A stretch of 41,621 nucleotides of DNA from IMG/VR virus record IMGVR_UViG_3300032319_000930, positions 1 to 41,621 of that record; one strand, written 5' to 3'. A model generated the notes under the pieces. It saw only the letters and a list, made by a program, of their open reading frames with translations, made no database searches and had not been told where the DNA came from. Within the stretch, counting starts at the first letter, position 1. Each line of letters begins with the position of its first letter. Source of the DNA: a virus. Its lineage: Duplodnaviria; Caudoviricetes. Positions 16,924 through 39,588 of the stretch are shown here, piece after piece. The position numbers and the translations under genes were made by a program.

Positions 16924-19281
16924 CTAGAGAGCAGCGATGGCGGCCTGGGCTCCCTTGACGAGAGCGAAATTGGCTAGCGGGTTGCCAGCAGGTAAAACAG
17001 AGGCAGGGTTGGAGTAATCATTCGAGAGCTGCCACATGAACACGGCCCGGATGCCCAAGTTGGACGATGCTTGAACCTTGTCAGCGATTGTATCCACCGA
17101 GTCGAAGCCCCAGATGGCTGTTGTTGGGTTGTAGTAGAAGTTGGCCTGAGTCGTAGGATTGGGATTGACTATGGGGACAGCAGCATTAAGGCGACCAAGC
17201 ATAAATTGCGGATCTGCGACGCCACCAGAACCTGCGACACGAACGATCTGGTCGTAAGGGGTTCCGTTGTTGGTGAATGCTTGGCCACTGGCGCTATTGC
17301 GCCCATAACCAGCAATGCCCATACCCAGTTTATCGCGAGTCACACCTTGGTCAAGGAACCACTGAACGCTTTGAACCGAGCGACCAACGCCGGTTTGGTT
17401 GTAGACCGCGACGTTTCCAGGTTGATAAGGAGATTGGTCCAGGTTGTTCGGGTCATCGTAGGTCATGATGTTGATTTGATCAACATAAGACTGACATGCA
17501 AGTGCTGTGCTTATTTTTAAGTCAGGGTCGGCCAGAGACAGAGGTGGGATGATGGTTAGATGGACTTCGTACGAGGAGTTGAGTGCTTTCACAGCTGCCT
17601 GGATCTTCTGGCAGAGAAGCGCCATGTTAGCAGGGACACAAGGCTGACCGACAGGTTCATAGTCAAGGTCAACGCCAACTGCCCCAGTAATCTGCACGAG
17701 TTTTGCAATCTGGTCGGCAGCAGTCTGAGCCAGACCGGCACTGCCGCCAGCTTGGTCCATGTACTGAGACAGGTTGTATCCGCCAATTGACAGGATTAGG
17801 TTTTTAGTCGTCCAGGCTGTCTGCTGCGAGAGGTAGTAGACCGAGTTCTTGATTGCGTAAGCAGAGTAAGCATAGTCTGGATTAGTTGGGCTAACGTAAC
17901 CACCGGACACTGACCCCGTATTATTTGCCCAATCAGTGCCACCAGCGTTTAACACCAAAGCAGCTGAGTTGCCAACATTCGTACCAAAGTATAGCTTACC
18001 GTCGGAATAGATTTGGGCTTCAATAAGGATGTAAAACTTATCGAGCGAAGGTAAAAGGGTGTTGATATTGGACGCCCGCATATTGGGGTTGAGTCCGACA
18101 TAGGAACCATCAGGGTAAACGCCACCGGTATTGCGATACTGGTAAAGGTCAATGTACACCCCGAGTTCCGGGGTAGAGGGCGTAACCCCGGGCGTAATGG
18201 AGATAACCACACTTGTGGTCCCAACCTGCTGTGTATAACCAGGATTGGAATAAAGTGCTATGCCAAGAGTATAAGGACCACCAGCCGGCAAAGATGCGGC
18301 TAAGGTTTGAGTGAAGCTGGCTGTGTTTGAAGTGACAGTTGCCGTACCTTGCAAAACATTGGAAGTGAAGAACGAGGAGGTGATCCCGCTACCAAACATC
18401 CTCCAGTACACCACAGTACCATCGGTGACATTAGTTGTTGCTACGGACGTAGAGATAACCGTATTTTCAGTTGCGGCTGTTGGGGTTGTTGACAGAGTGT
18501 AGGTTGGGATTGCCGGCGGTGGCGGCGGAGTTGCACCAACCAAGACACCAACGGGGGGCGGCGTAGCGTTGTTCCCCACAGAAAACATGTAACTATAGGG
18601 GATGGCCTGGGAGTTATTGTAGGGCGGCACAAACGGTGCGACTTGGTTTTGGAAGAAGCGGCGAGGCACTTGGTTCCACTTAGGTTGGCCCGCAGGAGAA
18701 ACATTGGTGACAGACGCAACTGTTACTGCGAAATCGGATCCAGAACCAAGGGGACCAGGGGAGGCAACACCGAGACCATTGCCAGCAGCGTAGTCACTGC
18801 CAGGGGTATTCAGGGTGACTACTGTCACAAACCCACTTGCATCAACAGTGATGTCTAGGGTGGCGCCAGTACCAGAACCGCCGATGGTGGGGACATTGGT
18901 ATAAGTGCCAGGTGTGTAGTTATATCCGGCCTGAACTCTGCCGAAAGAGGCAACAGCACCAGTCTGAAGTGTGAACGAGTTGACGCTGTAGTGGAACATC
19001 GTCGGGTCGCCGGGGTTCACACCGTAGCCGTTCGGTTGGAGCTGGGTGTAGTACTCCATGTAGTTGGTAGTCCAACCCTTGAGTGCCGGACGTGTTTCTA
19101 CAAGGGAGGGTAAATCAACCGGCGGAGTCAGCGTTTCCGGGTACTGCCAAGCCTTTTCGTTGATTGTGTTCGGTACCGTCGATTGGTAACCAGTAAGGAT
19201 TATATTGCCGTAGTCTTCGAGTTCAGTTGGAGTAAACTGCGCAGCAACTTCCTGCGCCATAAGAACTGTGCGTGGGATCAT
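16924..19281 (-). CDS. GH18 chitinase-like glycoside hydrolase with an N-terminal structural (fibre-like/Ig-like) region
   Basis: LSIGG, GVDLDYEP (DxDxE), INIMTYD, KLGMGIAGYGR, VFMWQL. Pro-rich linker. Confidence 0.85.
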   Translation of the reverse strand: MIPRTVLMAQEVAAQFTPTELEDYGNIILTGYQSTVPNTINEKAWQYPETLTPPVDLPSLVETRPALKGWTTNYMEYYTQLQPNGYGVNPGDPTMFHYSVNSFTLQTGAVASFGRVQAGYNYTPGTYTNVPTIGGSGTGATLDITVDASGFVTVVTLNTPGSDYAAGNGLGVASPGPLGSGSDFAVTVASVTNVSPAGQPKWNQVPRRFFQNQVAPFVPPYNNSQAIPYSYMFSVGNNATPPPVGVLVGATPPPPPAIPTYTLSTTPTAATENTVISTSVATTNVTDGTVVYWRMFGSGITSSFFTSNVLQGTATVTSNTASFTQTLAASLPAGGPYTLGIALYSNPGYTQQVGTTSVVISITPGVTPSTPELGVYIDLYQYRNTGGVYPDGSYVGLNPNMRASNINTLLPSLDKFYILIEAQIYSDGKLYFGTNVGNSAALVLNAGGTDWANNTGSVSGGYVSPTNPDYAYSAYAIKNSVYYLSQQTAWTTKNLILSIGGYNLSQYMDQAGGSAGLAQTAADQIAKLVQITGAVGVDLDYEPVGQPCVPANMALLCQKIQAAVKALNSSYEVHLTIIPPLSLADPDLKISTALACQSYVDQINIMTYDDPNNLDQSPYQPGNVAVYNQTGVGRSVQSVQWFLDQGVTRDKLGMGIAGYGRNSASGQAFTNNGTPYDQIVRVAGSGGVADPQFMLGRLNAAVPIVNPNPTTQANFYYNPTTAIWGFDSVDTIADKVQASSNLGIRAVFMWQLSNDYSNPASVLPAGNPLANFALVKGAQAAIAAL

Positions 19282-27754: not shown

Positions 27755-28100
27755 TTTTTTCGGTCAGATCTGCGGCAGCAATTGCATATTCTGTGCCAAT
27801 GCGTTGCGCTTCTTCGTCTGTAATGGTGGCGGCTTTGCGAAGTTTTTCCACCAGTGGCTCAAGTTCGTCCGGGACGTGAATGAAGCGACCGTCGTCGCGT
27901 ACGCAGTAAAGTAAGGTCACTTCCTGACGGCAACCGCACTGCCAATCAAGGGTGGGGTGACCGACCTCAACGCGCAATTCGACGCGATAGCGAGAGAAAC
28001 TTGCGGTGACTTCTGCGAGTTTGAAGCATCCGTTGACGACCGCAACCCTGATCGGGGAGGCAAAGAGGCGGGCGACGGCTTGTTTGGTGAGTTTGATCAT
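27738..28100 (-). CDS. hypothetical protein
   Basis: 120 aa. ATG at the repeat +1, stop inside the type B palindrome. Confidence 0.7.
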   Translation of the reverse strand: MIKLTKQAVARLFASPIRVAVVNGCFKLAEVTASFSRYRVELRVEVGHPTLDWQCGCRQEVTLLYCVRDDGRFIHVPDELEPLVEKLRKAATITDEEAQRIGTEYAIAAADLTEKSQLSN

Positions 28101-28174
28101 GAGTTAAATATAGCGCGTTTTCGTCCAAAAGTAAAGGGGGTAAACCGTACCTCCGGGGTACGGGTAACCGTACC
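28098..28174 (-). promoter_or_regulatory. promoter repeat 9 (type A)
   Basis: Type A element, TTTACT-17-TATATT-6-ATG. Confidence 0.85.
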
Positions 28175-28318
28175 TCACCCCACTTTCTCAACGAGGGCCA
28201 GCCGACCGGTGGTCTGGAAGACCGCCTCGGCGTGGTGCCAGGCCTCCTCGTAGGAGCGGAAGCGGGTGGGTTGTTCGCCGGGGATCCAGGCGATGTAGGT
28301 AGTGGTTTTTTTCTTCAT
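28175..28318 (-). CDS. small protein (47 aa), not in the ORF track
   Basis: MKKKTTTYIAWIPGEQPTRFRSYEEAWHHAEAVFQTTGRLALVEKVG. Fills the gap between two repeats exactly. Confidence 0.7.
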   Translation of the reverse strand: MKKKTTTYIAWIPGEQPTRFRSYEEAWHHAEAVFQTTGRLALVEKVG

Positions 28319-28389
28319 GAGTTAAATATAGCGCGTTTTCGGCCAAAAGTAAAGGGGGTGAGTGTCAGTTTGCCCACTGACCCTGATAC
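28316..28389 (-). promoter_or_regulatory. promoter repeat 10 (type B)
   Basis: TTTACT-17-TATATT-6-ATG with GTCAGT..ACTGAC upstream. Confidence 0.8.
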
Positions 28390-28402
28390 ACACGCACTAC
28401 CG

Positions 28403-28600
28403 TTACTTACCTGCAAGGTACTGGTCCTCGATAATGTCCATAAGCGAATCTTCGTCCACTTTCTCAAGGCCATCGGCCTTAAGTTCCCGCCACGTAGGTG
28501 CCGGATCGTGCTCTCGGTAAGCGTTTACGAAAGGAAAAAGTTTGGCCGCCAGAGTTGGATCCAGCTCAACATTGCGCAGATTGTAAATGGTGTTTGACAT
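28403..28600 (-). CDS. small hypothetical protein
   Basis: MSNTIYNLRN..., second gene of its cassette. Confidence 0.65.
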   Translation of the reverse strand: MSNTIYNLRNVELDPTLAAKLFPFVNAYREHDPAPTWRELKADGLEKVDEDSLMDIIEDQYLAGK

Positions 28601-28619
28601 TGTTTTCTCGGAAAAAAAC

Positions 28620-28874
28620 TTAGTAAAGGTACCAATCAATTTTCCGCTCGCCGTTCATTTGCTCCAGTTTGTAATCATGAAAAGTTTCTGTAATCATTTC
28701 AATATCGGCGTCGTCTGGTAGTTCCTGAGCGCAGATTACTAAGACCTCGTCGTAAAGGCGATCAAAGGCAACTTTGTCACCATCGTAACCGTCGTAGTTG
28801 CAATCGTAAAGTAACTCGTCGTGGAGCACGAATGAAGCACGGAGCGCTTTTTCTTGGAGTTGAATGTTTTTCAT
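28620..28874 (-). CDS. small acidic protein (paralog family with 30033 and 31036)
   Basis: LHDELLYD...GY.G....F..L..E....ELPDDAD.E.I...F..Y.LE..NGER. Confidence 0.75.
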   Translation of the reverse strand: MKNIQLQEKALRASFVLHDELLYDCNYDGYDGDKVAFDRLYDEVLVICAQELPDDADIEMITETFHDYKLEQMNGERKIDWYLY

Positions 28875-28948
28875 GAATTAATCATAGCGCGTTTTGGCCG
28901 TTTTGCAAAGGGGGCAAACCGTACCCTCAAGGTACGGGTAACCGTACC
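28872..28948 (-). promoter_or_regulatory. promoter repeat 11 (type A)
   Basis: TTTGCA/TATGAT-6-ATG plus a type A element. Confidence 0.8.
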
Positions 28949-29140
28949 TTAGTTAAAGTTTCGTATGACCGCCATAATTGCGTCGTTTTCGTAAATGTTT
29001 ACCGTCCGTTTTGCGTGCGCCGAGTAGGCCTCTGCTGTGTCATAAGCTTCGTCAAGGTTTTCGTAAACCGTGAAATCTGTGGGGCTGTCGCAACCGCCCC
29101 AAGTAAGGTAGTAGGTGTTCAAAGGGGTTTCGTTTTTCAT
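28949..29140 (-). CDS. small hypothetical protein (paralog of 27307-27486)
   Basis: Exactly bounded by repeats 11 and 12. Confidence 0.75.
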   Translation of the reverse strand: MKNETPLNTYYLTWGGCDSPTDFTVYENLDEAYDTAEAYSAHAKRTVNIYENDAIMAVIRNFN

Positions 29141-29214
29141 GAGTTAATCATAGCTTGAAACCGCTCAAAAGTAAAGGGGGTAAACCGTACCTCCCAGGTA
29201 CGGGTAACCGTACC
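29138..29214 (-). promoter_or_regulatory. promoter repeat 12 (type A)
   Basis: TTTACT-17-TATGAT-6-ATG plus a type A element. Confidence 0.8.
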
Positions 29215-29217
29215 CCC

Positions 29218-29319
29218 TCACCGCAGCAAGAACGGGCCGCCGAGCATGGCAAAAAACACCAAGGGGTGAACAAATAGGCCGAGAACAACGCTGAGAAGCA
29301 AATAAGAAAAGACAAGCAT
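29218..29319 (-). CDS. 33-aa hydrophobic microprotein (paralog of 30927-31028)
   Basis: MLVFSYLLLSVVLGLFVHPLVFFAMLGGPFLLR. Confidence 0.65.
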   Translation of the reverse strand: MLVFSYLLLSVVLGLFVHPLVFFAMLGGPFLLR

Positions 29320-29326
29320 TAGTAAC

Positions 29327-29674
29327 TCAGGCTGCGGAAAGGGTTAGTTTGTCGGCAGAAGTTCCCATACAGAAAGTGCCGTTGGAAAGATAAGCCGCCC
29401 AGAAATATCTATCATCGCAGTTAAACCACTCGGCAGTTACACTACCCAACTCAATCCTATCGGTTTCAAACTCCAGGTCACGCAGATTGCGCACGCCGAA
29501 GTGTGCTTTCAGCTGCTTCAAGTTAAAAAATAAGCAATCTCCAACTTTGAAACCAAGGAAACGGTTGGAGTCGGTGTAATCGCGCTCGCCACGCTTATAT
29601 CCAGCGCGGTACACATTGCCGCTGATAAGGTTAGCGACGGTTGGTTTTTTGATCAAGGTGGTTTCGTTTCTCAT
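29327..29674 (-). CDS. hypothetical protein
   Basis: MRNETTLIKK..., ATG at the repeat +1. Confidence 0.7.
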   Translation of the reverse strand: MRNETTLIKKPTVANLISGNVYRAGYKRGERDYTDSNRFLGFKVGDCLFFNLKQLKAHFGVRNLRDLEFETDRIELGSVTAEWFNCDDRYFWAAYLSNGTFCMGTSADKLTLSAA

Positions 29675-29747
29675 GAATTTACTATAGGTCATTTTCGCTC
29701 AAAAGTAAAGGGGGCAAACCGCCCTCTTTAGGGCGGGTAACCGTACC
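29672..29747 (-). promoter_or_regulatory. promoter repeat 13 (type A' with CCGCCCT/AGGGCGG arms)
   Basis: TTTACT-17-TATAGT-6-ATG. Confidence 0.8.
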
Positions 29748-29751
29748 TTTC

Positions 29752-30012
29752 TTAAAGTAATCCGTAAGTAACCAGTTGAGTTTCTAACTCGTCTACATAG
29801 CTTTGAAGTTCCAGCACACTCATGTCGGCGTAAACGTAACTGGAACTCTTCTCAAGTAGTGATTCAAAATACGACTCATCTGGCAGAGCGGCAACTGCAT
29901 CCACGCAGCAATTTGCGACCAAGTTAATCATATCCTGGTTGATATCGTCGTCGCCCAGGAAGTTAGTGAGAGCGTCTTCTGCAGCGAAGAAGTATTTGGT
30001 GTAGTCAGACAT
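29752..30012 (-). CDS. small acidic hypothetical protein
   Basis: MSDYTKYFF..., second gene of its cassette. Confidence 0.65.
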   Translation of the reverse strand: MSDYTKYFFAAEDALTNFLGDDDINQDMINLVANCCVDAVAALPDESYFESLLEKSSSYVYADMSVLELQSYVDELETQLVTYGLL

Positions 30013-30032
30013 GTTTGTTGAATAAAGAAAAC

Positions 30033-30284
30033 TTAAAGGAACCAACATACGTCGCGCTCGCCGTTTGTAATCTCGAGTTGGTATTGGTCGAAAAGGTTAA
30101 CAATCTGCTCTAAATCTGCGTCGTCAGGTAACTCCTCGTGAACAATAGTGTAGACCTCTCTGTAAAGGTAATCAAACGCCTCTTTGTCAGCGTCGTAACC
30201 TACGCAATAAGGGCAGTCAAGGTATTGCTGGTGGACGAGGATTGTAGCATTGAGAGTTTTCTGTAGGAGTTGAACGTTTTTCAT
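30033..30284 (-). CDS. small acidic protein (paralog of 28620 and 31036)
   Basis: Shares ELPDDAD.E.I and LEI.NGERD. Confidence 0.75.
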   Translation of the reverse strand: MKNVQLLQKTLNATILVHQQYLDCPYCVGYDADKEAFDYLYREVYTIVHEELPDDADLEQIVNLFDQYQLEITNGERDVCWFL

Positions 30285-30357
30285 GAATTAATCATAGCGT
30301 GAAATGGCCGAAAAGTAAAGGGGGTAAACCGCCCTCTTTAGGGCGGGTAACCGTACC
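30282..30357 (-). promoter_or_regulatory. promoter repeat 14 (type A')
   Basis: TTTACT-17-TATGAT-6-ATG. Confidence 0.8.
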
Positions 30358-30849
30358 TCAAACATCCTCGGTGAAGTGCCAACCATCCTCCTCATCTTCG
30401 TCGGTGAAGCTAAACTCTTCCTCCTCATCTTCGTCGGGTCCAAAACTCGTAATGATCTCAATATGACCGAAACAAACTACTCCGTCGTCATAGCCGCAGT
30501 TCAGAGTTTCAAACTCTTCTGGCAGCTCGATAATGTGTCCGAGGCCATTATCGATAGCGTTTTGAAACTCAGGGTCGGTAATATCGTCAACTTTAATAAT
30601 ACCCAACGTTCCGGAATCTACGCTATAGGAATGTCCGTAAAAGTCACGGTAGGTACCGTCGCCGTGAGCAGTTCCGTAGATAGCAAACTTACGGCCGTCG
30701 GCCAGTTGCAGTTTACCGGTGACCTCAGTTGTGTGGTCAGGAAAAGTTAAGTCGCAAACTTCGCTCCACTCAGGGTTCATAACGTAGCAAAGATCGCCGA
30801 CGTAGTAACGGGCAGTGGAGGTAGGCATTGAAGTGGTTTCGTTTCTCAT
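30358..30849 (-). CDS. conserved phage hypothetical protein with an acidic tail
   Basis: YYVGDLCYV, TAHGDGTY, YSVDSGTLG is a motif set common in phage hypothetical proteins. Confidence 0.75.
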   Translation of the reverse strand: MRNETTSMPTSTARYYVGDLCYVMNPEWSEVCDLTFPDHTTEVTGKLQLADGRKFAIYGTAHGDGTYRDFYGHSYSVDSGTLGIIKVDDITDPEFQNAIDNGLGHIIELPEEFETLNCGYDDGVVCFGHIEIITSFGPDEDEEEEFSFTDEDEEDGWHFTEDV

Positions 30850-30923
30850 GAATTAAATATACCGTGTTTTGGCCGAAAAGTAAAGGGGGTAAACCGTACC
30901 TCCAAGGTACGGGTAACCGTACC
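30847..30923 (-). promoter_or_regulatory. promoter repeat 15 (type A)
   Basis: TTTACT-17-TATATT-6-ATG plus a type A element. Confidence 0.85.
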
Positions 30924-30926
30924 TCT

Positions 30927-31028
30927 TCAGGTTACTAAAAACGGAGCGCCGAGCATAATGAAAAACACCAAGGGGTGAACAAATAGGCCGAGTACAACGC
31001 TGAGAAGCAAATAAGGGAAGATAAACAT
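30927..31028 (-). CDS. 33-aa hydrophobic microprotein (paralog of 29218-29319)
   Basis: MFIFPYLLLSVVLGLFVHPLVFFIMLGAPFLVT. Confidence 0.65.
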   Translation of the reverse strand: MFIFPYLLLSVVLGLFVHPLVFFIMLGAPFLVT

Positions 31029-31035
31029 TAGTAAC

Positions 31036-31308
31036 TCAACCTACCTCGTAGTAACCTGGATCGCGGTCACCGTTGACAATCTCTAGCTGGTTCTCGTAAA
31101 ACTTTTCTACGACCCACTGGGTAATACCCACTACGCGCAGTTCGTTTTCGATGATATACAAACATTCGGCGCGAAGTAACTGGAACTGGTCTAAAGTTCC
31201 TTCGTACCCCAAGAAAGCGTCGTCGTAAAGTAACTCGTTGTGGAGCCGAAAAGCGGCGCTCAGGGCCAGCAGGTGGTTGGTTTCGTTCAGGTTTTCCTCG
31301 TTTCTCAT
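31036..31308 (-). CDS. small acidic protein (paralog of 28620 and 30033)
   Basis: LHNELLYD...GYEG...F..L..E, QLEIVNGDRD. Confidence 0.75.
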   Translation of the reverse strand: MRNEENLNETNHLLALSAAFRLHNELLYDDAFLGYEGTLDQFQLLRAECLYIIENELRVVGITQWVVEKFYENQLEIVNGDRDPGYYEVG

Positions 31309-31382
31309 GAGTTAAATATAGGTCATTTTCGCTCAAAAGTAAAGGGGGCAAACCGTACCCCGTAGGTAGGGGAAACCGTACC
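31306..31382 (-). promoter_or_regulatory. promoter repeat 16 (type A variant)
   Basis: TTTACT-17-TATATT-6-ATG. Confidence 0.8.
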
Positions 31383-31518
31383 TCTCGCAAAGTTTTAACA
31401 ACGGTTGGTCTTGTTAAAGGTTTGGTCGGTTTGCTTTAATAAGGTCTAAAATAATGTTTACTTTGTGGCACATAATAAATCAATAATTGCAATAATGAAA
31501 TAATGATAATAAAGGCAA

Positions 31519-33500: not shown

Positions 33501-33998
33501 TCACTTCAAGGTAAAACCTTGCTCCACAACTTCCACCGCATAACCCTCCCGCAGGTTACGCATCCGAGTTGCCATTCCTTTCCGCCAACTTGGGTTCTGG
33601 TTACTACGATTCGCATTTCGCTCATTCAGAGTTTCCTCGTCCGCATCCAGATAATAAATAGTTACATCCGAACATTCGTCTCGGAAAAAGTCAAAGAATT
33701 TGGAGTTGGACATACGCTCGCCTTCAAAATAAAACGTCCAATCGTCCCACTCTGGATTTGCATTATGTCGTGCAATCCACTCTCGATACTTAGGCCCGCA
33801 ACCTTTACTTAAACGGTCGGTCCCCGAAAACACCTGTTTATCGTAAATACCTGCAACAATAACGTTATCGTCGTGAAACAGAGTATAAACAACTAGTCCC
33901 TGTTTTTGTATAGAGCAACCACCAAGAGTCGCGATAAATTTTTTCATGACCGTGCTTTTACCAGCAGCAGGTTCACCAATAAGACCGACGATTTTCAT
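33501..33998 (-). CDS. P-loop nucleotide kinase (5hmU DNA-kinase-like)
   Basis: Walker A GEPAAGKST, G.Y...FSGTDRLS, FEGERM resemble the kinases that accompany aGPT-Pplase genes. Confidence 0.75.
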   Translation of the reverse strand: MKIVGLIGEPAAGKSTVMKKFIATLGGCSIQKQGLVVYTLFHDDNVIVAGIYDKQVFSGTDRLSKGCGPKYREWIARHNANPEWDDWTFYFEGERMSNSKFFDFFRDECSDVTIYYLDADEETLNERNANRSNQNPSWRKGMATRMRNLREGYAVEVVEQGFTLK

Positions 33999-34873
33999 TT
34001 GTTTCTCCCCAGGATTTGTTTTAATTGCGCCCTCTTTTGAAGGGAGTTGTAGTTAGGCCTCAACCTAACCTCACTTAAATCTTTTTGAATATCCTCCAAT
34101 GTGAAATAAGGATACTCTTCCTCCAGTTTTAGTTTAATCTCCTCGGCTCGTTTTTGCTCCAAGGAGAAACCAGATTCCTCGCTATAGTCAGACCCCATTA
34201 AGTTAATCCCCTCTATAAATTTGCCAACAGGTACATCTTTAGCGTAAACAGCAAGGTGAATAAGTTTTTCTGTATATTCTGGACAGAAAGCGCCCGAACG
34301 AAAAACCGATCCCAATATCCAGTACCCCGGAATATACCCCACGGTTTCCTCCAGCTCCGCCATATAGTTCATGGGATAGCAATAGGTTGGATTAAAATCT
34401 GTTTTAATAATATAAGTTTGCAGTGCTTCCAGGTGACGCTTCAACAAAGGTAAATGCTCTTGACTAAAATAATACACAGCATTGACGCCCCGATACCATA
34501 ACTTTGCTGGATTACCATTTTCATCGGCTTGAAGATTGCACTGTAGAGCAACACCGTAATTAGATGGCGGGGCCCATATATGAAAATCATAGTCTAAATA
34601 CATCACCTCGTCGTAACCCGACTCCAAACTTTTTATCATTTCAGCAACTCGTGTGTAGTCGCTGATACTAGTGGCTTTTCTAACATTTCGTTTTGTGTAA
34701 CGAGCTGCTAGTTCAATCGCCACCTCATCTTGATCGCATCGAGTTACCCCTTTAAACTCAAATCCCGAAATCGAAAGAACACTTTCTCGTTTTTTTGCTC
34801 TTTGCAAAAGAGCGGTTGGACAAGGTCGGTCATTCGGTAGTTCCGGCCAAACCGAGAATGCGAGTTTTTTCAT
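33995..34873 (-). CDS. putative GT-A glycosyltransferase
   Basis: SDYTR followed by GYDEVMYLDYD (DxD after a hydrophobic strand). Confidence 0.55.
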   Translation of the reverse strand: MKKLAFSVWPELPNDRPCPTALLQRAKKRESVLSISGFEFKGVTRCDQDEVAIELAARYTKRNVRKATSISDYTRVAEMIKSLESGYDEVMYLDYDFHIWAPPSNYGVALQCNLQADENGNPAKLWYRGVNAVYYFSQEHLPLLKRHLEALQTYIIKTDFNPTYCYPMNYMAELEETVGYIPGYWILGSVFRSGAFCPEYTEKLIHLAVYAKDVPVGKFIEGINLMGSDYSEESGFSLEQKRAEEIKLKLEEEYPYFTLEDIQKDLSEVRLRPNYNSLQKRAQLKQILGRNK

Positions 34874-35265
34874 TTTTTCGTAAGTTCGTGAAGTAGGTGG
34901 ACAACTTTGACCTCGGGGACCATAGTTTCGATAATACCTTTTTGAACGGGATCGTCTTCGAAATGCAGAGCGATTCTCATAGTCTTTTGCAATTCTCTCA
35001 AAGTAAGAGCTTTGTGGTAACCGGATATCTCCCGTGTCTTAAGGTGCTCGGGCACCTTACTAAAGATGACCCGGTTGGTAATGCCAAACTTTTTGCACCA
35101 GGCTAATGTTTTATCCCGCTCCTCGTAACTTCTGCCGGTGATGATAATGTCCTCCGGGGAGGGACGAACCCCGGGATTCTCATCCCCAAAGTAAATCACC
35201 CCGTCAAAGTCGAAAGAATTGATGGTCGTAGGAAATGACCAAGGAGGTAAATACATTGCCCTCAC
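34870..35265 (-). CDS. minimal HAD-family phosphatase
   Basis: SFDFDGVI, IITGRS, K, HFEDD. Overlaps the ino1 stop. Confidence 0.8.
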   Translation of the reverse strand: MRAMYLPPWSFPTTINSFDFDGVIYFGDENPGVRPSPEDIIITGRSYEERDKTLAWCKKFGITNRVIFSKVPEHLKTREISGYHKALTLRELQKTMRIALHFEDDPVQKGIIETMVPEVKVVHLLHELTKK

Positions 35266-36413
35266 TTCTCCACTTGGGAACGGTCGGAAGCAAAGCTGTT
35301 TGTAACTTTGAGTTTAGTTAAATTGCGATTGGCAAATGCCTCACACTCAGCTTTTGCATCGGCGTACATAAGTTGCTGCGGAGGAGTTTTCTGAGTCCAC
35401 GCACTTGGACCACGCAGAGCACCAACAATCCCCTCCTCCCGAGCAACTTTCAAGTAACGAATGGCGTCGATAACGACACCCGCAGAGTTCTCACTGTCCT
35501 GCACAGAGAGTTTGGCATCGATCTCAATGGGTGCTCCGCCAAAACCCTCCAACTCGATCTTGAAATAGGCAACTTTATTGTCCTTCAGATAAGGGATGAA
35601 AGTAGAGGGCCCGGCGAACAAAGCATCGTCGTCCACGGGAATCCCTCGGATGTCATTTTGAGCACGAATAACATTTTCTTTCGAGATCTTCTTGCTTGCT
35701 AGACGCTCTTGCGTCATCATGTTGTTGAAATCGCTGTTTCCACCAACATTCAGTTGCTGGTGGTATTTAACAACCGCACCACGATCAAAAGCCAACTCTT
35801 GCAAAACTTGGCTCATGACCGACGCTCCAACTTGGCTACGCATATCGTCACCAATGAGGGGCAATCCCGCATCAATAAACTTTTGCTCCCAAACCGGATC
35901 ACTCGCAATAAACACCGGGATGCAGTTCAAGAAAGCTACATTCGCGCTGAGGCAGGCGTTTGCGTAGAACTCTGTGGCAATCTGAGAACCTACCGGCATG
36001 TAGTTAAGCAGGATGTCAGCTTTAGTATCTCGCAATACTTGAGCAACATCGCAAGGCTCTTCGTTGGAAATACGAAAGCCAAACCGTTCCGGTTGCTCCA
36101 ACATGTGCTGTGAAACACCATCAAAAACGGGTGCCATCTGGACAGTTACACCAGGAGGAACATTCGGGCAAAACACCCTTGCACAGTTCGGAGCAGCAAA
36201 AATTGCTTCGCCAATCGGACGACCAACTTTACGACGATCCACATCAAAAGCCGCGACAAACTCAATATCCGCAGGATGGTAACCGCCAATTCGACTAAAC
36301 ATTACGCCAGGGATGTTTTCTTCTTCGTGATCTTTGTAGAAGTTTACACCCTGATAGAGGGCCGAAAAGCAATTACCAACACCAGCAACTGCAACTTTAA
36401 TTTTCTTAGACAT
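35262..36413 (-). CDS. ino1: myo-inositol-1-phosphate synthase
   Basis: GVGNC.SAL.QG, FDVD..KVG, NYMPVGS..A..FYA, N.IPVFIA, GDD..SQVGA, QLNVGGN.DF.NM...RL.SKKISK, V.DS.NSAG..IDA.R. Confidence 0.95.
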   Translation of the reverse strand: MSKKIKVAVAGVGNCFSALYQGVNFYKDHEEENIPGVMFSRIGGYHPADIEFVAAFDVDRRKVGRPIGEAIFAAPNCARVFCPNVPPGVTVQMAPVFDGVSQHMLEQPERFGFRISNEEPCDVAQVLRDTKADILLNYMPVGSQIATEFYANACLSANVAFLNCIPVFIASDPVWEQKFIDAGLPLIGDDMRSQVGASVMSQVLQELAFDRGAVVKYHQQLNVGGNSDFNNMMTQERLASKKISKENVIRAQNDIRGIPVDDDALFAGPSTFIPYLKDNKVAYFKIELEGFGGAPIEIDAKLSVQDSENSAGVVIDAIRYLKVAREEGIVGALRGPSAWTQKTPPQQLMYADAKAECEAFANRNLTKLKVTNSFASDRSQVEK

Positions 36414-36502: not shown

Positions 36503-37735
36503 CTACGTGTTGATGTAGGAGAAATCTACATAAGGCTTTTCCCAAGCCTCATGTTTTTTGTCTTTGAATCGCAGAAAATTAACGGGATTGTACTTCTTAA
36601 CAAGAGAGTTTCTCTTCCTCGCAGTAAAAGCATCCTCCCAGATATCTAGCATGTCTCGATGACCCTGAGGAGCAACTTTTTTAAGGTTCAAGACTTTATA
36701 AGCATCGGGCTCGTCAGTGTACAAATAATGAGTGTTTAGGTTAAACCCGTGTTCCACAAGAATAGTGAAGTAAGAGGGGTCGTAACCATAGTTGCGAACG
36801 TTTTGCCCTTTCGTCATAAACCCGGAAACGTATGGCACCCAATCGACAATGCCAGGTCCTTCATAATTTTCCCAAACTGTTTTCAAAGCCGTAAACTGCT
36901 CTACCAACTCATTGCTGGTCCAAAAAGTGAACTCTTTAATTCGTGGGCCATAGGCGGTTTTACGGTACTCACATTCGACCGACTCAACGTTGTAAATGTC
37001 AACGTGAAACGGCACTCGTTTATTAACTTCTTCCATTAAAACAAATGTCTTCTCCTGCATCAGCTCAATATTTGTTTTGGTCGGCTCGTATTTTAAAACT
37101 TTCCCGTCCGGTTGTTTTTGTTTGCGAGCAATGTCCAAACGATCAAATAAATAACAAATAGAATCGTATTGCGACCAAGTACCTTCGTCGTATAGTTGTT
37201 GATCCCAATAGTCAATATCCCAGTTAAAAAGCTCGTAGAAAGTTTGTTGAGCGAGCCACGCGGTCATACGCCCGATACCTCGTATTTTTCGAAGAGCTTG
37301 GTTTAGTGAGTAGTAGTTTTCTTTTGTAGACCCAACATGCGCAGCAGCATAAAAATAATCATAAATGCTTGATGGTCCAACAAGCTCTTTTAGAGACTGA
37401 ACAAAATCAGGGAAACGTCGAACTCCCCATTTAGTATCGTTACCATATTTCATCCTCCACCAGTTTGCATTGTGCCAGTCAACCAGTTGATCGTGAGGCA
37501 TATTGTACAAGTCCAACTGAAGGGCAATCATGGCCCAGTGGTTACGGTAACTCTGCCCAAAAAGTACACAATAAAGAGCTTTGTCCTCATCGGAAAGCTC
37601 CATCATGTCCGCAATCACTCTAGCCACGTGATGGTGATCACAATCGCCTTCTACCATTCGCACATGTGTAACGCGAGCGAACGCCTCAATTCTATTTTCT
37701 GGCAACCGCCAGTCGGTGTGTACGGTGGTAATCAT
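36503..37735 (-). CDS. alpha-glutamyl/putrescinyl-thymine pyrophosphorylase-like (amino acid:DNA transferase, HhH-glycosylase fold)
   Basis: HhH-like IRGIGRMTAW and C-terminal VESVECEYRK. Sits next to TET/JBP and kinase genes. Confidence 0.7.
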   Translation of the reverse strand: MITTVHTDWRLPENRIEAFARVTHVRMVEGDCDHHHVARVIADMMELSDEDKALYCVLFGQSYRNHWAMIALQLDLYNMPHDQLVDWHNANWWRMKYGNDTKWGVRRFPDFVQSLKELVGPSSIYDYFYAAAHVGSTKENYYSLNQALRKIRGIGRMTAWLAQQTFYELFNWDIDYWDQQLYDEGTWSQYDSICYLFDRLDIARKQKQPDGKVLKYEPTKTNIELMQEKTFVLMEEVNKRVPFHVDIYNVESVECEYRKTAYGPRIKEFTFWTSNELVEQFTALKTVWENYEGPGIVDWVPYVSGFMTKGQNVRNYGYDPSYFTILVEHGFNLNTHYLYTDEPDAYKVLNLKKVAPQGHRDMLDIWEDAFTARKRNSLVKKYNPVNFLRFKDKKHEAWEKPYVDFSYINT

Positions 37736-37795: not shown

Positions 37796-39208
37796 TTAAG
37801 AGTGTTTCAGGTGCGGGCTACGCACTTCGACGGGTATCTGATCCGGATCACCCTTCAAGTTGCTGTTAGTGCATTCTTTTTCGTAGTTGTACCCCCCCTC
37901 CTCGGTTCGTAAACGTTTGTAGTTTTCCCAATAAGTGGAACCCCACATTCCCGGGAAGCTTCCTGCCCACTTTTTCTCTCCGGTGCCCAGCTCCGGATGG
38001 TTGATGACTGCGTAGTCCAAGAACTCCCGACGACAAATCTCGCATCTCAAGGAGTCTAACTTGATGATGTTATCTCGTTGGTAAAACACAAGCCAGACAC
38101 TCTCGAAGTCTGAAGAGGTGTTTTTAAAGGGCATCATACCGTGCATGAGCCCTTGATTATCACCGCCCAAGAAGTCACCGTGCCGAAGATTAAAAGCTAA
38201 ACGCAACTGGGGGAACACAAACTCGCTACCCTCGTAGGTTCCTTTCTCTAAGACAGTTAGTGCAGCAGCAGCATTTTTTGCGTTATTGCCGTCGTAATGG
38301 TACGCCACCTGAAAGTTCCAGTTGGTGGTGATACTGGTAAAACAAGTACCAAACAGGTTGTATGACTCATCTTTCACTTCCTTGAACCTTTTTGAGAGCA
38401 CTTTCCAAGTGTTTGGCATGGTCTCTTTAAGCAAACCATCAATTTCCCGGAACAGAGGCAATTGCTCACAGAAATCTTCGTAGCGGTCCATTGTAGGTTT
38501 AGTAAGGCGGCCAAATGGTGTGCGACCACTTCTGTCAATGGTGCCAAGTACTACGCTGTAAGCTTTATTTCCGCGCGGTTGCGTAGTCACATACCGCTTC
38601 TTAGCATCTTTAGCAGCTTGTTTTCGATTTGCCGATTTGACCCAAGTAGTCATCAGCCATTTGTCAAACCACGCAAGTTTCGCAGCATTCCGTTTGCTAA
38701 TGGCCTCTTCACGAAGAGGTGAAGACGTGCTCTTTTTACGAACCAGGCTATCCCATTTCTCAATTTCGTCGAGGTCAACTAAACCATCACTTTCCGTTTT
38801 GTGCACATAGAAAGTTTCACGAGAAGGAGTTTTATCAGTTGTTAGCTCTTGTGCCTCACTCAGAGTAAGTTCTCGTTTGACTGCTGCGGCGAAAAATTTT
38901 TTCTGACCCTCGGTAAGGCGAATCTCAACATTAGTAACCAGCTCACGACCGGCGGCGGCCCCTCTTTGATCGCTCAGCAAAGAACGACTTGCCCAGCGCC
39001 AGTACTTAAAAGTGGGACTGCTCGACTCAACATCGCGAAGAGTTTTCAGAGCCTGCTTGCGAAAAGTTAGCCCCAGAGTGCCGTCTGGCAGGTAAACATC
39101 GCAGTCCTCGTCTATAACTTCGTCAAAATCTCTCTCTGTCGGATAGATTCCCAAGAACTCTTTATCCGATATTTCGTGAAGTTTCTCAAGCTTGATGATG
39201 CGCACCAT
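37796..39208 (-). CDS. TET/JBP-family Fe(II) dioxygenase (atypical)
   Basis: DEDCDVY.P...FRK, RGAAAG, GT.FTSITTN.NF...HYD, G.Y.G...FP....N.R.GD, HG, LVFYQR. Likely start MVRII at 39208. Confidence 0.85.
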   Translation of the reverse strand: MVRIIKLEKLHEISDKEFLGIYPTERDFDEVIDEDCDVYLPDGTLGLTFRKQALKTLRDVESSSPTFKYWRWASRSLLSDQRGAAAGRELVTNVEIRLTEGQKKFFAAAVKRELTLSEAQELTTDKTPSRETFYVHKTESDGLVDLDEIEKWDSLVRKKSTSSPLREEAISKRNAAKLAWFDKWLMTTWVKSANRKQAAKDAKKRYVTTQPRGNKAYSVVLGTIDRSGRTPFGRLTKPTMDRYEDFCEQLPLFREIDGLLKETMPNTWKVLSKRFKEVKDESYNLFGTCFTSITTNWNFQVAYHYDGNNAKNAAAALTVLEKGTYEGSEFVFPQLRLAFNLRHGDFLGGDNQGLMHGMMPFKNTSSDFESVWLVFYQRDNIIKLDSLRCEICRREFLDYAVINHPELGTGEKKWAGSFPGMWGSTYWENYKRLRTEEGGYNYEKECTNSNLKGDPDQIPVEVRSPHLKHS

Positions 39209-39330
39209 GGTTTTAGTTGTCGTTGTGCAAGTTATACCCATTTTTAGTATAGCAAAAAGCCGCCCCCGTAAAGCGAGCGGCGTCTTCTGTTTGGCTAACG
39301 CCAAACGGTCGCGGCTTCGCCGCTTCCCGC

Positions 39331-39588
39331 TCATTTCGGAGGCAAACTCTGAATGTTTTCAATCAGAATGTCCACCATGTCTACCGTGCAGTAACGCAGC
39401 ACGTCGTTGGTGATTGCGGTGTCGAATGTGAGCCGGGCTCTTTTACCTTTCTCATGTTTCATCACAGCTACCTCGTAATGCACCTCGTCGGCCTCAGGTA
39501 TTACACTGACCCCGAAACCATTGTCAAATAAAGCCTCGTGGCGAAATCCGCGAGAGTGCGGATGAACGTTTAAATCGGATAGTTTCAT
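39331..39588 (-). CDS. conserved phage hypothetical protein
   Basis: F.NG.G.SV, YEVAV, T.IT.DV..Y motif set. Confidence 0.7.
   Translation of the reverse strand: MKLSDLNVHPHSRGFRHEALFDNGFGVSVIPEADEVHYEVAVMKHEKGKRARLTFDTAITNDVLRYCTVDMVDILIENIQSLPPK

Follow-up and report, generated by a model that had tools for sequence, protein, structure and literature searches.

A clade of phage TET/JBP-family oxygenases without the 2-oxoglutarate-binding arginine and its possible switch of co-substrate

A clade of TET/JBP-family oxygenases from uncultured, cyanophage-like viruses has lost the arginine that contacts the C5-carboxylate of 2-oxoglutarate (2OG) and keeps the iron ligands and base-binding residues of the family; the variant is genuine, and no earlier description of it was found. 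Judged from the sequences, the clade-wide loss is best read, with a probability of roughly 0.4, as a natural switch from 2OG to a mono-carboxylic 2-oxo acid. The enzyme likely still hydroxylates thymine in replicated DNA, with 5-hydroxymethyluracil (5hmU) as its predicted product. Taken together, all readings in which 2OG is not the co-substrate have a slightly better than even chance. To our knowledge, the C5-carboxylate arginine has been regarded as invariable in TET/JBP enzymes, with CMD1 the only member known to have left 2OG. In the literature searched, which includes few subscription papers, neither an Arg-less phage TET nor an inositol-bearing DNA base was found described.

The window, i.e. 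the whole stretch of 41,621 nucleotides that was analysed, is a linear virus record (IMGVR_UViG_3300032319_000930) with an estimated completeness of 19%. It encodes capsid, portal and sheath proteins and a polymerase-gamma-like DNA polymerase that shares 57.6% identity with the polymerase of Synechococcus phage S-CBWM1, which suggests that the host is a picocyanobacterium. The oxygenase was called as an open reading frame on the minus strand (37796-39334). Its start is likely Met43 at 39208, because the homologues are about 470 aa long and residues 1-40 have a pLDDT below 50. The PF12851 score was 53 bits (cut-off 34.9), and the predicted model (pLDDT 90.6, built from 113 sequences) was aligned by VIA-align with TET2 (Z 19.6, rmsd 4.4, 267 residues aligned), NgTet1 (Z 18.7) and CMD1 (Z 18.1); it also resembled CcTet by structure comparison. 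By profile and by its predicted double-stranded beta-helix fold the protein belongs to the TET/JBP (5mYOX) superfamily. A search of solved structures with the single oxygenase sequence gave no relevant match, a locus scan with the same single query gave one near copy only, and no relatives were found in the prokaryote genome contigs searched. The gene and its diagnostic positions are as follows.

37796..39208, minus strand: TET/JBP-family oxygenase of the Arg-less clade (Pfam PF12851, Tet_JBP, E 2.8e-14)
38963..38965, minus strand: Arg124 of the DQRG motif, kept (125/126 Arg-less and 28/28 Arg-keeping proteins)
38291..38299, minus strand: iron ligands His346-x-Asp348 (H346-Y-D348), kept in 126/126 Arg-less proteins
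38219..38224, minus strand: Glu371-Phe372, clade-specific (Tyr-Leu in Arg-keeping relatives, Glu370-Phe371 in CMD1)
38135..38143, minus strand: His398, the third iron ligand, kept in 126/126, with Met400
38075..38101, minus strand: last core strand, with Ser412 at the Arg position and Trp414 at the Ser position; Val416, Tyr418 and Arg420 kept (alignments)

In the profile alignment the last strand of the query (E-S-V-W-L-V-F-Y-Q-R) falls on RISLVFYQH of human TET2. This places Ser412, encoded by AGT at 38099-38101, at the position of the arginine and Trp414 at that of the serine two residues further on, which we take to be TET2 S1898. The arginine itself, TET2 R1896 or NgTET1 R289, is named as the C5-carboxylate partner in the CMD1 paper (PMC7854593). 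An earlier note on this DNA had described the lost arginine, the serine replaced by tryptophan, HGNT altered to HGMM, and an intact HYD and distal histidine; all of this was confirmed on the minus strand, the HYD codons lying at 38291-38299 and that of H398, in the motif H-G-M-M, at 38141-38143. The same note had pointed out that AGT is one base away from an Arg codon and that an error would be indicated if close homologues kept the arginine. They do not: when the query was aligned with the best 120 of 173 homologues (50-100% identity), Arg was present at position 412 in 0/121 proteins (Asn in 59, Ser in 51, Cys in 7 and Ala in 4), and the iron triad was kept in all 121. A larger set of Arg-less proteins gave 0/126, with Ser not among the top four residues at 414. 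At the nucleotide level the position was occupied by AGT, AGC, TCG, TCA, AAC, AAT or TGT in 42 of the 44 loci read, the remaining two being Arg-keeping sisters. Values of dN/dS were 0.05-0.21 in 8/11 pairs (dS was saturated in the other three), well below 1, so the clade is under purifying selection. With no Arg in 121 proteins, seven codons, four amino acids and such ratios, there is a negligible chance that the loss stems from decay of the gene or from a mistake in sequencing or assembly. Among more distant relatives, collected by a profile search of 1.84 billion representatives, the arginine was kept in 131 of the 141 listed matches with an aligned last strand (150 were listed); nine of the ten others were top-scoring relatives of the query and the tenth was a distant protein with Gln.

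The metal-proximal and base-binding residues are conserved. T336, N338 and V416 are invariant in 126/126 Arg-less proteins, Y418 is found in 125/126 and R/K420 is retained, so that the Thr/Val/Tyr base pocket of TET2 (T1372, V1900, Y1902) is present as T336, V416 and Y418. The positions kept are those of the conserved TET pocket (Burke 2021; PMC8256090), and their invariance spans 126 proteins with identities down to about 40%. From its conservation and position, Arg124 would be the equivalent of TET2 R1261 and CMD1 R244, which serve the C1-carboxylate and base stacking.

The far end of the co-substrate pocket, read from alignments and strand positions, was compared between the 126 Arg-less proteins and six sisters plus 22 other long Arg-keeping TETs. 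Seven residues common to both Arg-keeping groups are lost in the clade (R342, Y371, L372, N400, R412, S414 and E421), and the first six of these are near-universal in the 28 relatives. Phe372 is present in 125/126 Arg-less proteins, where 6/6 sisters have Leu; position 400 is Met in 76, Gln in 38 and Ile in 12, against Asn in 28/28 Arg-keeping proteins. The residues at 400/412/414 differ between sub-lineages (M/S/W, M/N/M, Q/N/T, I/S/T and M/C/M), as expected if no polar group is read there. Within residues 330-421 the alignment of Arg-less with Arg-keeping proteins revealed no conserved Arg or Lys gained, and R384 and R420 are common to both. Basic residues were gained outside the core (K179, K219, K245, K246, R284 and R316); in the model these sit in helices and in the insertion, where they look more like a DNA-binding surface. 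As far as alignments can tell, the half of the site that serves the metal and the base has been preserved, whereas the far end has been remodelled, for the most part with non-polar side chains that vary from one sub-lineage to another.

There is precedent for a switch of co-substrate: loss of the equivalent arginine in AspH and PAHX admits mono-carboxylic 2-oxo acids. The variants AspH R735Q/W and PAHX R275Q/W run on hydrophobic acids of this kind, whereas wild-type AspH uses none of the 12 tested; AspH R735Q still turns over 2OG, more than 3000-fold less efficiently (PMC12816917). Those are disease variants with a single change and low activity, which counts against the precedent; the phage clade is natural, carries five or six co-ordinated changes and is under purifying selection. 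The predicted co-substrate lacks a far carboxylate and could be pyruvate or the keto acid of an aliphatic amino acid; a short tail such as that of pyruvate fits the variable far residues, the exact acid being a guess. Against the switch, no recurring neighbour gene able to supply a special co-substrate was seen among the clustered Arg-less loci. Fe(II) would bind the head of the 2-oxo acid, O2 would decarboxylate it, and the ferryl species would then hydroxylate the thymine methyl.

Alternatively, the protein may still be an ordinary 2OG-dependent thymine hydroxylase, with the C5-carboxylate held by uncharged donors, by water, or by a basic residue that reaches in from beyond the core strands. 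This is a doubtful though not a slight prospect. Its downstream partners are all as for ordinary T-dioxygenases, AspH R735Q sets a precedent for residual 2OG activity (PMC12816917), and the six clade-specific basic positions could offer a substitute. In one sub-lineage the trio Gln400/Asn412/Thr414 could hold a carboxylate via neutral hydrogen bonds, which counts against the switch. However, the basic positions lie in the helices and insertion of the model, the sub-site of the query and many others reads Met/Ser/Trp/Phe/Leu or Met/Cys/Met, and the arginine is widely kept, both in the distant relatives listed (131/141) and in all phage TETs of Burke 2021 (PMC8256090).

Trees were built with 26 of the 126 Arg-less proteins. 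With the pocket columns included the Arg-less proteins grouped at 99/93. Without these columns a quick tree split the group and needed two changes, and a careful tree recovered one Arg-less group, with support of 86/84 that rose to 95/88 when the long row P0125 was left out. A single loss of the arginine, as judged from these sequences, is therefore likely. The nearest Arg-keeping group, sister to the Arg-less clade in the tree, includes gp8 of S-CBWM1 (ATW62692.1, annotated 'SNF2 DNA repair protein'), the closest cultured relative (37.6% identity over 88%). This phage is of the same type and has the TAGT-HAD-nucleotidyltransferase-APH neighbours of many Arg-less members, but gp8 keeps Arg-x-Ser, the Asn after His-Gly/Ala and Tyr-Leu, which the clade does not; gp8 is a natural Arg-keeping control. 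The GenBank label 'SNF2 DNA repair protein' is also carried by the TET/JBP genes L002:3729-5165, L003:6001-7347, L005:5491-6819 and L007:5662-6570, all of which match PF12851.

CMD1 shares with the query the TET fold, the iron triad, and Val and Glu-Phe at two pocket positions (PMC7854593). The earlier note had invoked it as a TET homologue without canonical 2OG-binding residues. This holds in so far as Trp358 fills the C5-carboxylate site of CMD1; the aligned Arg410 is kept in its sequence and points away (PMC7854593), whereas in the query the arginine itself is lost. Positions 372, 400 and 412 map to CMD1 F371, T399 and R410, all of which lie along or next to the co-substrate site, with a numbering offset deduced from H345 and cross-checked at S335, T337, V342, I356 and W358. 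In the profile alignment, two of the hydrophobic contacts V342, I356 and F371 are matched by V343 and F372 and the other differs (A357), and the essential contacts T337, W358 and T399 are replaced by N338, L359 and M/Q/I400. The parallel is thus partial, and in fold the model resembles TET2 at least as much as CMD1.

If the enzyme worked like CMD1, ascorbate or a similar sugar acid would drive either a reductant-dependent hydroxylation or the transfer of a carbon-carbon-linked fragment to the methyl group. We regard this as unlikely. Besides V343 and the E371-F372 pair, matching CMD1 V342 and E370-F371, it can call on CMD1 being the top Foldseek match (E 5.2e-9) and the only TET-family chain among the clade-profile matches listed (E 0.36), and on R124, which is compatible since CMD1 keeps R244. 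Against this stand the unmatched essential contacts, the three VIA-align Z scores, which are nearly tied, and a wider profile that favours TET2 (E 1.8e-7 versus 0.003). The special kinship to CMD1 suggested by Foldseek and the clade profile was thus not upheld by the wider profile alignment and VIA-align. Moreover, CMD1 acts on 5mC and forms a C-C bond (PMC7854593), whereas the neighbours of the query call for a hydroxymethyl group, and a carbon-linked glyceryl would not be expected to supply the leaving group that the amino acid:DNA transferase (AADT) needs (PMC8989533). It is more improbable still that the clade is a second, independent departure of TET enzymes from 2OG and, as CMD1 does, joins a piece of a host sugar acid, or of some other organic co-substrate, to the methyl group of thymine; if it were, cyanophages would contain an undescribed DNA base before any transferase acts.

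The genes that follow the oxygenase bear on its product. On the minus strand the order in the window is TET/JBP, AADT, Ino1, HAD phosphatase, a 292-aa DxD protein and a P-loop kinase.

36503..37735, minus strand: AADT (aGPT-PPlase2) with a Glu...Cys active-site motif conserved in the alignment (Pfam ADDT, E 1.9e-10)
35262..36413, minus strand: myo-inositol-1-phosphate synthase, ino1 (Pfam PF01658, E 9.1e-23)
34870..35265, minus strand: HAD-type phosphatase travelling with ino1 (DFDG motif; PHROG 415, E 6e-7; in 67/82 ino1 loci)
33995..34873, minus strand: 292-aa DxD protein, possible GT-A glycosyltransferase (no Pfam match)
33501..33998, minus strand: P-loop kinase, putative 5-hydroxymethyluracil DNA kinase (Pfam Ploopntkinase3, E 1.7e-10)

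AADT acts on 5-phosphomethyl-dU via an exocyclic methylene, with catalytic roles for its Cys and Glu, and in AADT-type clusters TET/JBP genes replace the dUMP hydroxymethylase (PMC8989533). Where AADT and kinase genes adjoin a phage T-dioxygenase, the enzyme produces 5hmU (PMC13229309). As the kinase, AADT and glycosyltransferases need a hydroxymethyl handle, the product of the Arg-less enzyme is likely still 5hmU. The P-loop kinase would phosphorylate it and AADT would swap the phosphate for a nucleophile, here probably inositol from Ino1 and the HAD phosphatase; the inositol-bearing base may be glycosylated further. In relatives a TET-associated glycosyltransferase would sugar the same handle instead. 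Kinase and AADT with catalytic Glu and Cys are shared with phages ViI, M6 and PaMx11, and ViI gp247 forms an ether by way of a hydroxyl group, the route that inositol would take; those phages, by contrast, obtain 5hmU from a dUMP hydroxymethylase and carry amino-acid cargo (PMC8989533), where the window has a TET and inositol as candidate cargo.

In five records with an Arg-less TET or, in the case of S-CBWM1, its relative, other sources of the handle were sought; apart from S-CBWM1 these were 19-61% complete. Neither a ThyA-type hydroxymethylase nor a C5-methyltransferase (PF00145) was found in any of these five (S-CBWM1 and four partial records), and ThyX was present in 3/5. One TET per record was found in 5/5 Arg-less records. 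As the sole source of the handle visible in these incomplete genomes, the Arg-less TET would seem to act by hydroxylation, as opposed to being dead or transferring a carbon-carbon unit. An iron and DNA binder with another job (a different substrate, further oxidation of a base that is already modified, or a non-catalytic scaffold for the kinase and transferase), the handle coming from an unseen gene, is rather improbable: no iron ligand or base-binding residue varies among 126 proteins with identities down to about 40%, and no second TET or hydroxymethylase was found in the records searched. In its favour, the genomes are incomplete, and some clade C1 phage enzymes without ParB are inactive on T or 5mC (PMC13229309).

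With the phage T-dioxygenases (5mYOX C1/C2) the clade shares the TET/JBP fold, the iron triad and the absence of a C5-methyltransferase (PMC13229309, PMC8256090), as well as AADT, P-loop kinase, glutamine amidotransferase and glycosyltransferase neighbours and a variable insertion after the first conserved Arg, which is essential in those enzymes (PMC13229309). It differs in length (about 470 against about 300 aa) and in that no ParB was seen among the scanned neighbours in the window, other loci having been clustered and partly scanned. The C5-carboxylate arginine, absent here, is carried by the phage TETs of Burke 2021 (PMC8256090) and by the assayed sequences in the part of Dataset S11 covered (PMC13229309), and the clade motifs do not occur in the first 400 characters of the cells in all 12 supplement files of O'Toole 2026 (PMC13229309). 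The Arg-less enzyme has N351 where assayed T-dioxygenases have Asp, and its preference for thymine is for this reason less secure.

The proposal of the earlier note that another co-substrate is used gains from the clade-wide loss, the sub-site changes and the lack of a basic replacement in the core strands. Its candidate, inositol or inositol-1-phosphate from the adjacent Ino1, fared otherwise and is very improbable. In its favour, ino1 lies two genes off here and is found in 9/21 Arg-less loci (those with 5.9 kb or more of downstream sequence; a manual count in which some loci are the same virus), and L025 also has an inositol-dehydrogenase-like gene. Against it, ino1 is absent nearby in the other 12, and a whole-record search found it in only 1/5 larger, partial records. 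Conversely, TETs beside ino1 keep the arginine in 21/29 cases, so that its loss tracks ino1 in neither direction. These 21 share the order TET-AADT-ino1-HAD-kinase, and in Caulobacter phage Cr30 AADT and ino1 accompany a TET that keeps the arginine. The 82 ino1 loci came from the best 80 of 280 viral matches together with two cultured phages; 29 have a TET, 25 have a thymidylate-synthase-type gene and no TET, and nine are 7-deazaguanine clusters. TETs 65-77% identical to the query adjoin amidotransferase/amidoligase genes without ino1; the ino1-less Arg-less loci carry either TAGT, HAD, nucleotidyltransferase and APH, as in S-CBWM1, or amidotransferase, amidoligase, AADT and kinase. Inositol also has neither a 2-oxo acid nor an enediol group to drive O2 activation. 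Since ino1 is distributed independently of the arginine, inositol appears to be interchangeable cargo for a later step, and is likely the cargo of the AADT transferase reaction and not the co-substrate of the oxygenase.

Several further observations were made on these loci. Two very divergent AADT subtypes occur with ino1 (L005, L009, L013 and L031 versus the window, L010, L020, L025 and L039), and since near-identical TETs have different AADTs, the module downstream of TET is swapped freely. At L045, L046, L056 and L019 Arg-less TETs have no recognized transferase directly downstream (L019 has a kinase only, the others small unknown genes), and there the hydroxymethyl base may be the end product. 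At L025:742-2385 a tandem Gfo/Idh/MocA (inositol-dehydrogenase-like) oxidoreductase lies between the Arg-less TET and AADT-ino1-HAD-TAGT-kinase; it could convert inositol to inosose or an isomer before transfer. Within 7-deazaguanine clusters (FolE, QueC, QueE), ino1, usually with HAD, was found in Stenotrophomonas phage Mendera (L062, 8092-13618) and at eight more loci (L096, L102, L111, L113, L122, L130, L135 and L141), which suggests that in cultured phages inositol may be cargo attached to a guanine-derived base. A 356-aa protein without a Pfam match adjoins ino1 at L114:6812-7882 and at 27 related loci, where the clusters also contain a gene of the thymidylate-synthase type and one resembling a 5-hmdU DNA kinase; an AADT-like nature was rejected (profile comparison probability 0.8%), and it is a candidate for a new transferase family. 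The 292-aa protein was found among TET loci in the window virus and its near copy only; its Atlas look-alikes (Gb3_synth / Gly_transf_sug, 0.92-0.95) are a lead only. Elsewhere in the window, a DNA unit repeated at 27900-31400 between small paralogous genes of 83-90 aa gives the same spurious peptide in ORFs 27967-28191, 29148-29315, 30288-30461 and 31067-31390, and the 785-aa product of 16924-19281 contains a domain of glycoside hydrolase family 18 and matches virion proteins weakly.

If the switch of co-substrate is real, the clade, a lineage of more than 100 sequence clusters, would provide the first natural case of a DNA oxygenase adapted to a 2-oxo acid other than 2OG. 2OG is a carbon/nitrogen signal in cyanobacteria, and phage DNA modification could then be uncoupled from the 2OG pool of the host. 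The enzyme would also be a scaffold for co-substrate-orthogonal TET tools, and the operon of the window is a candidate for an inositol-bearing DNA base.
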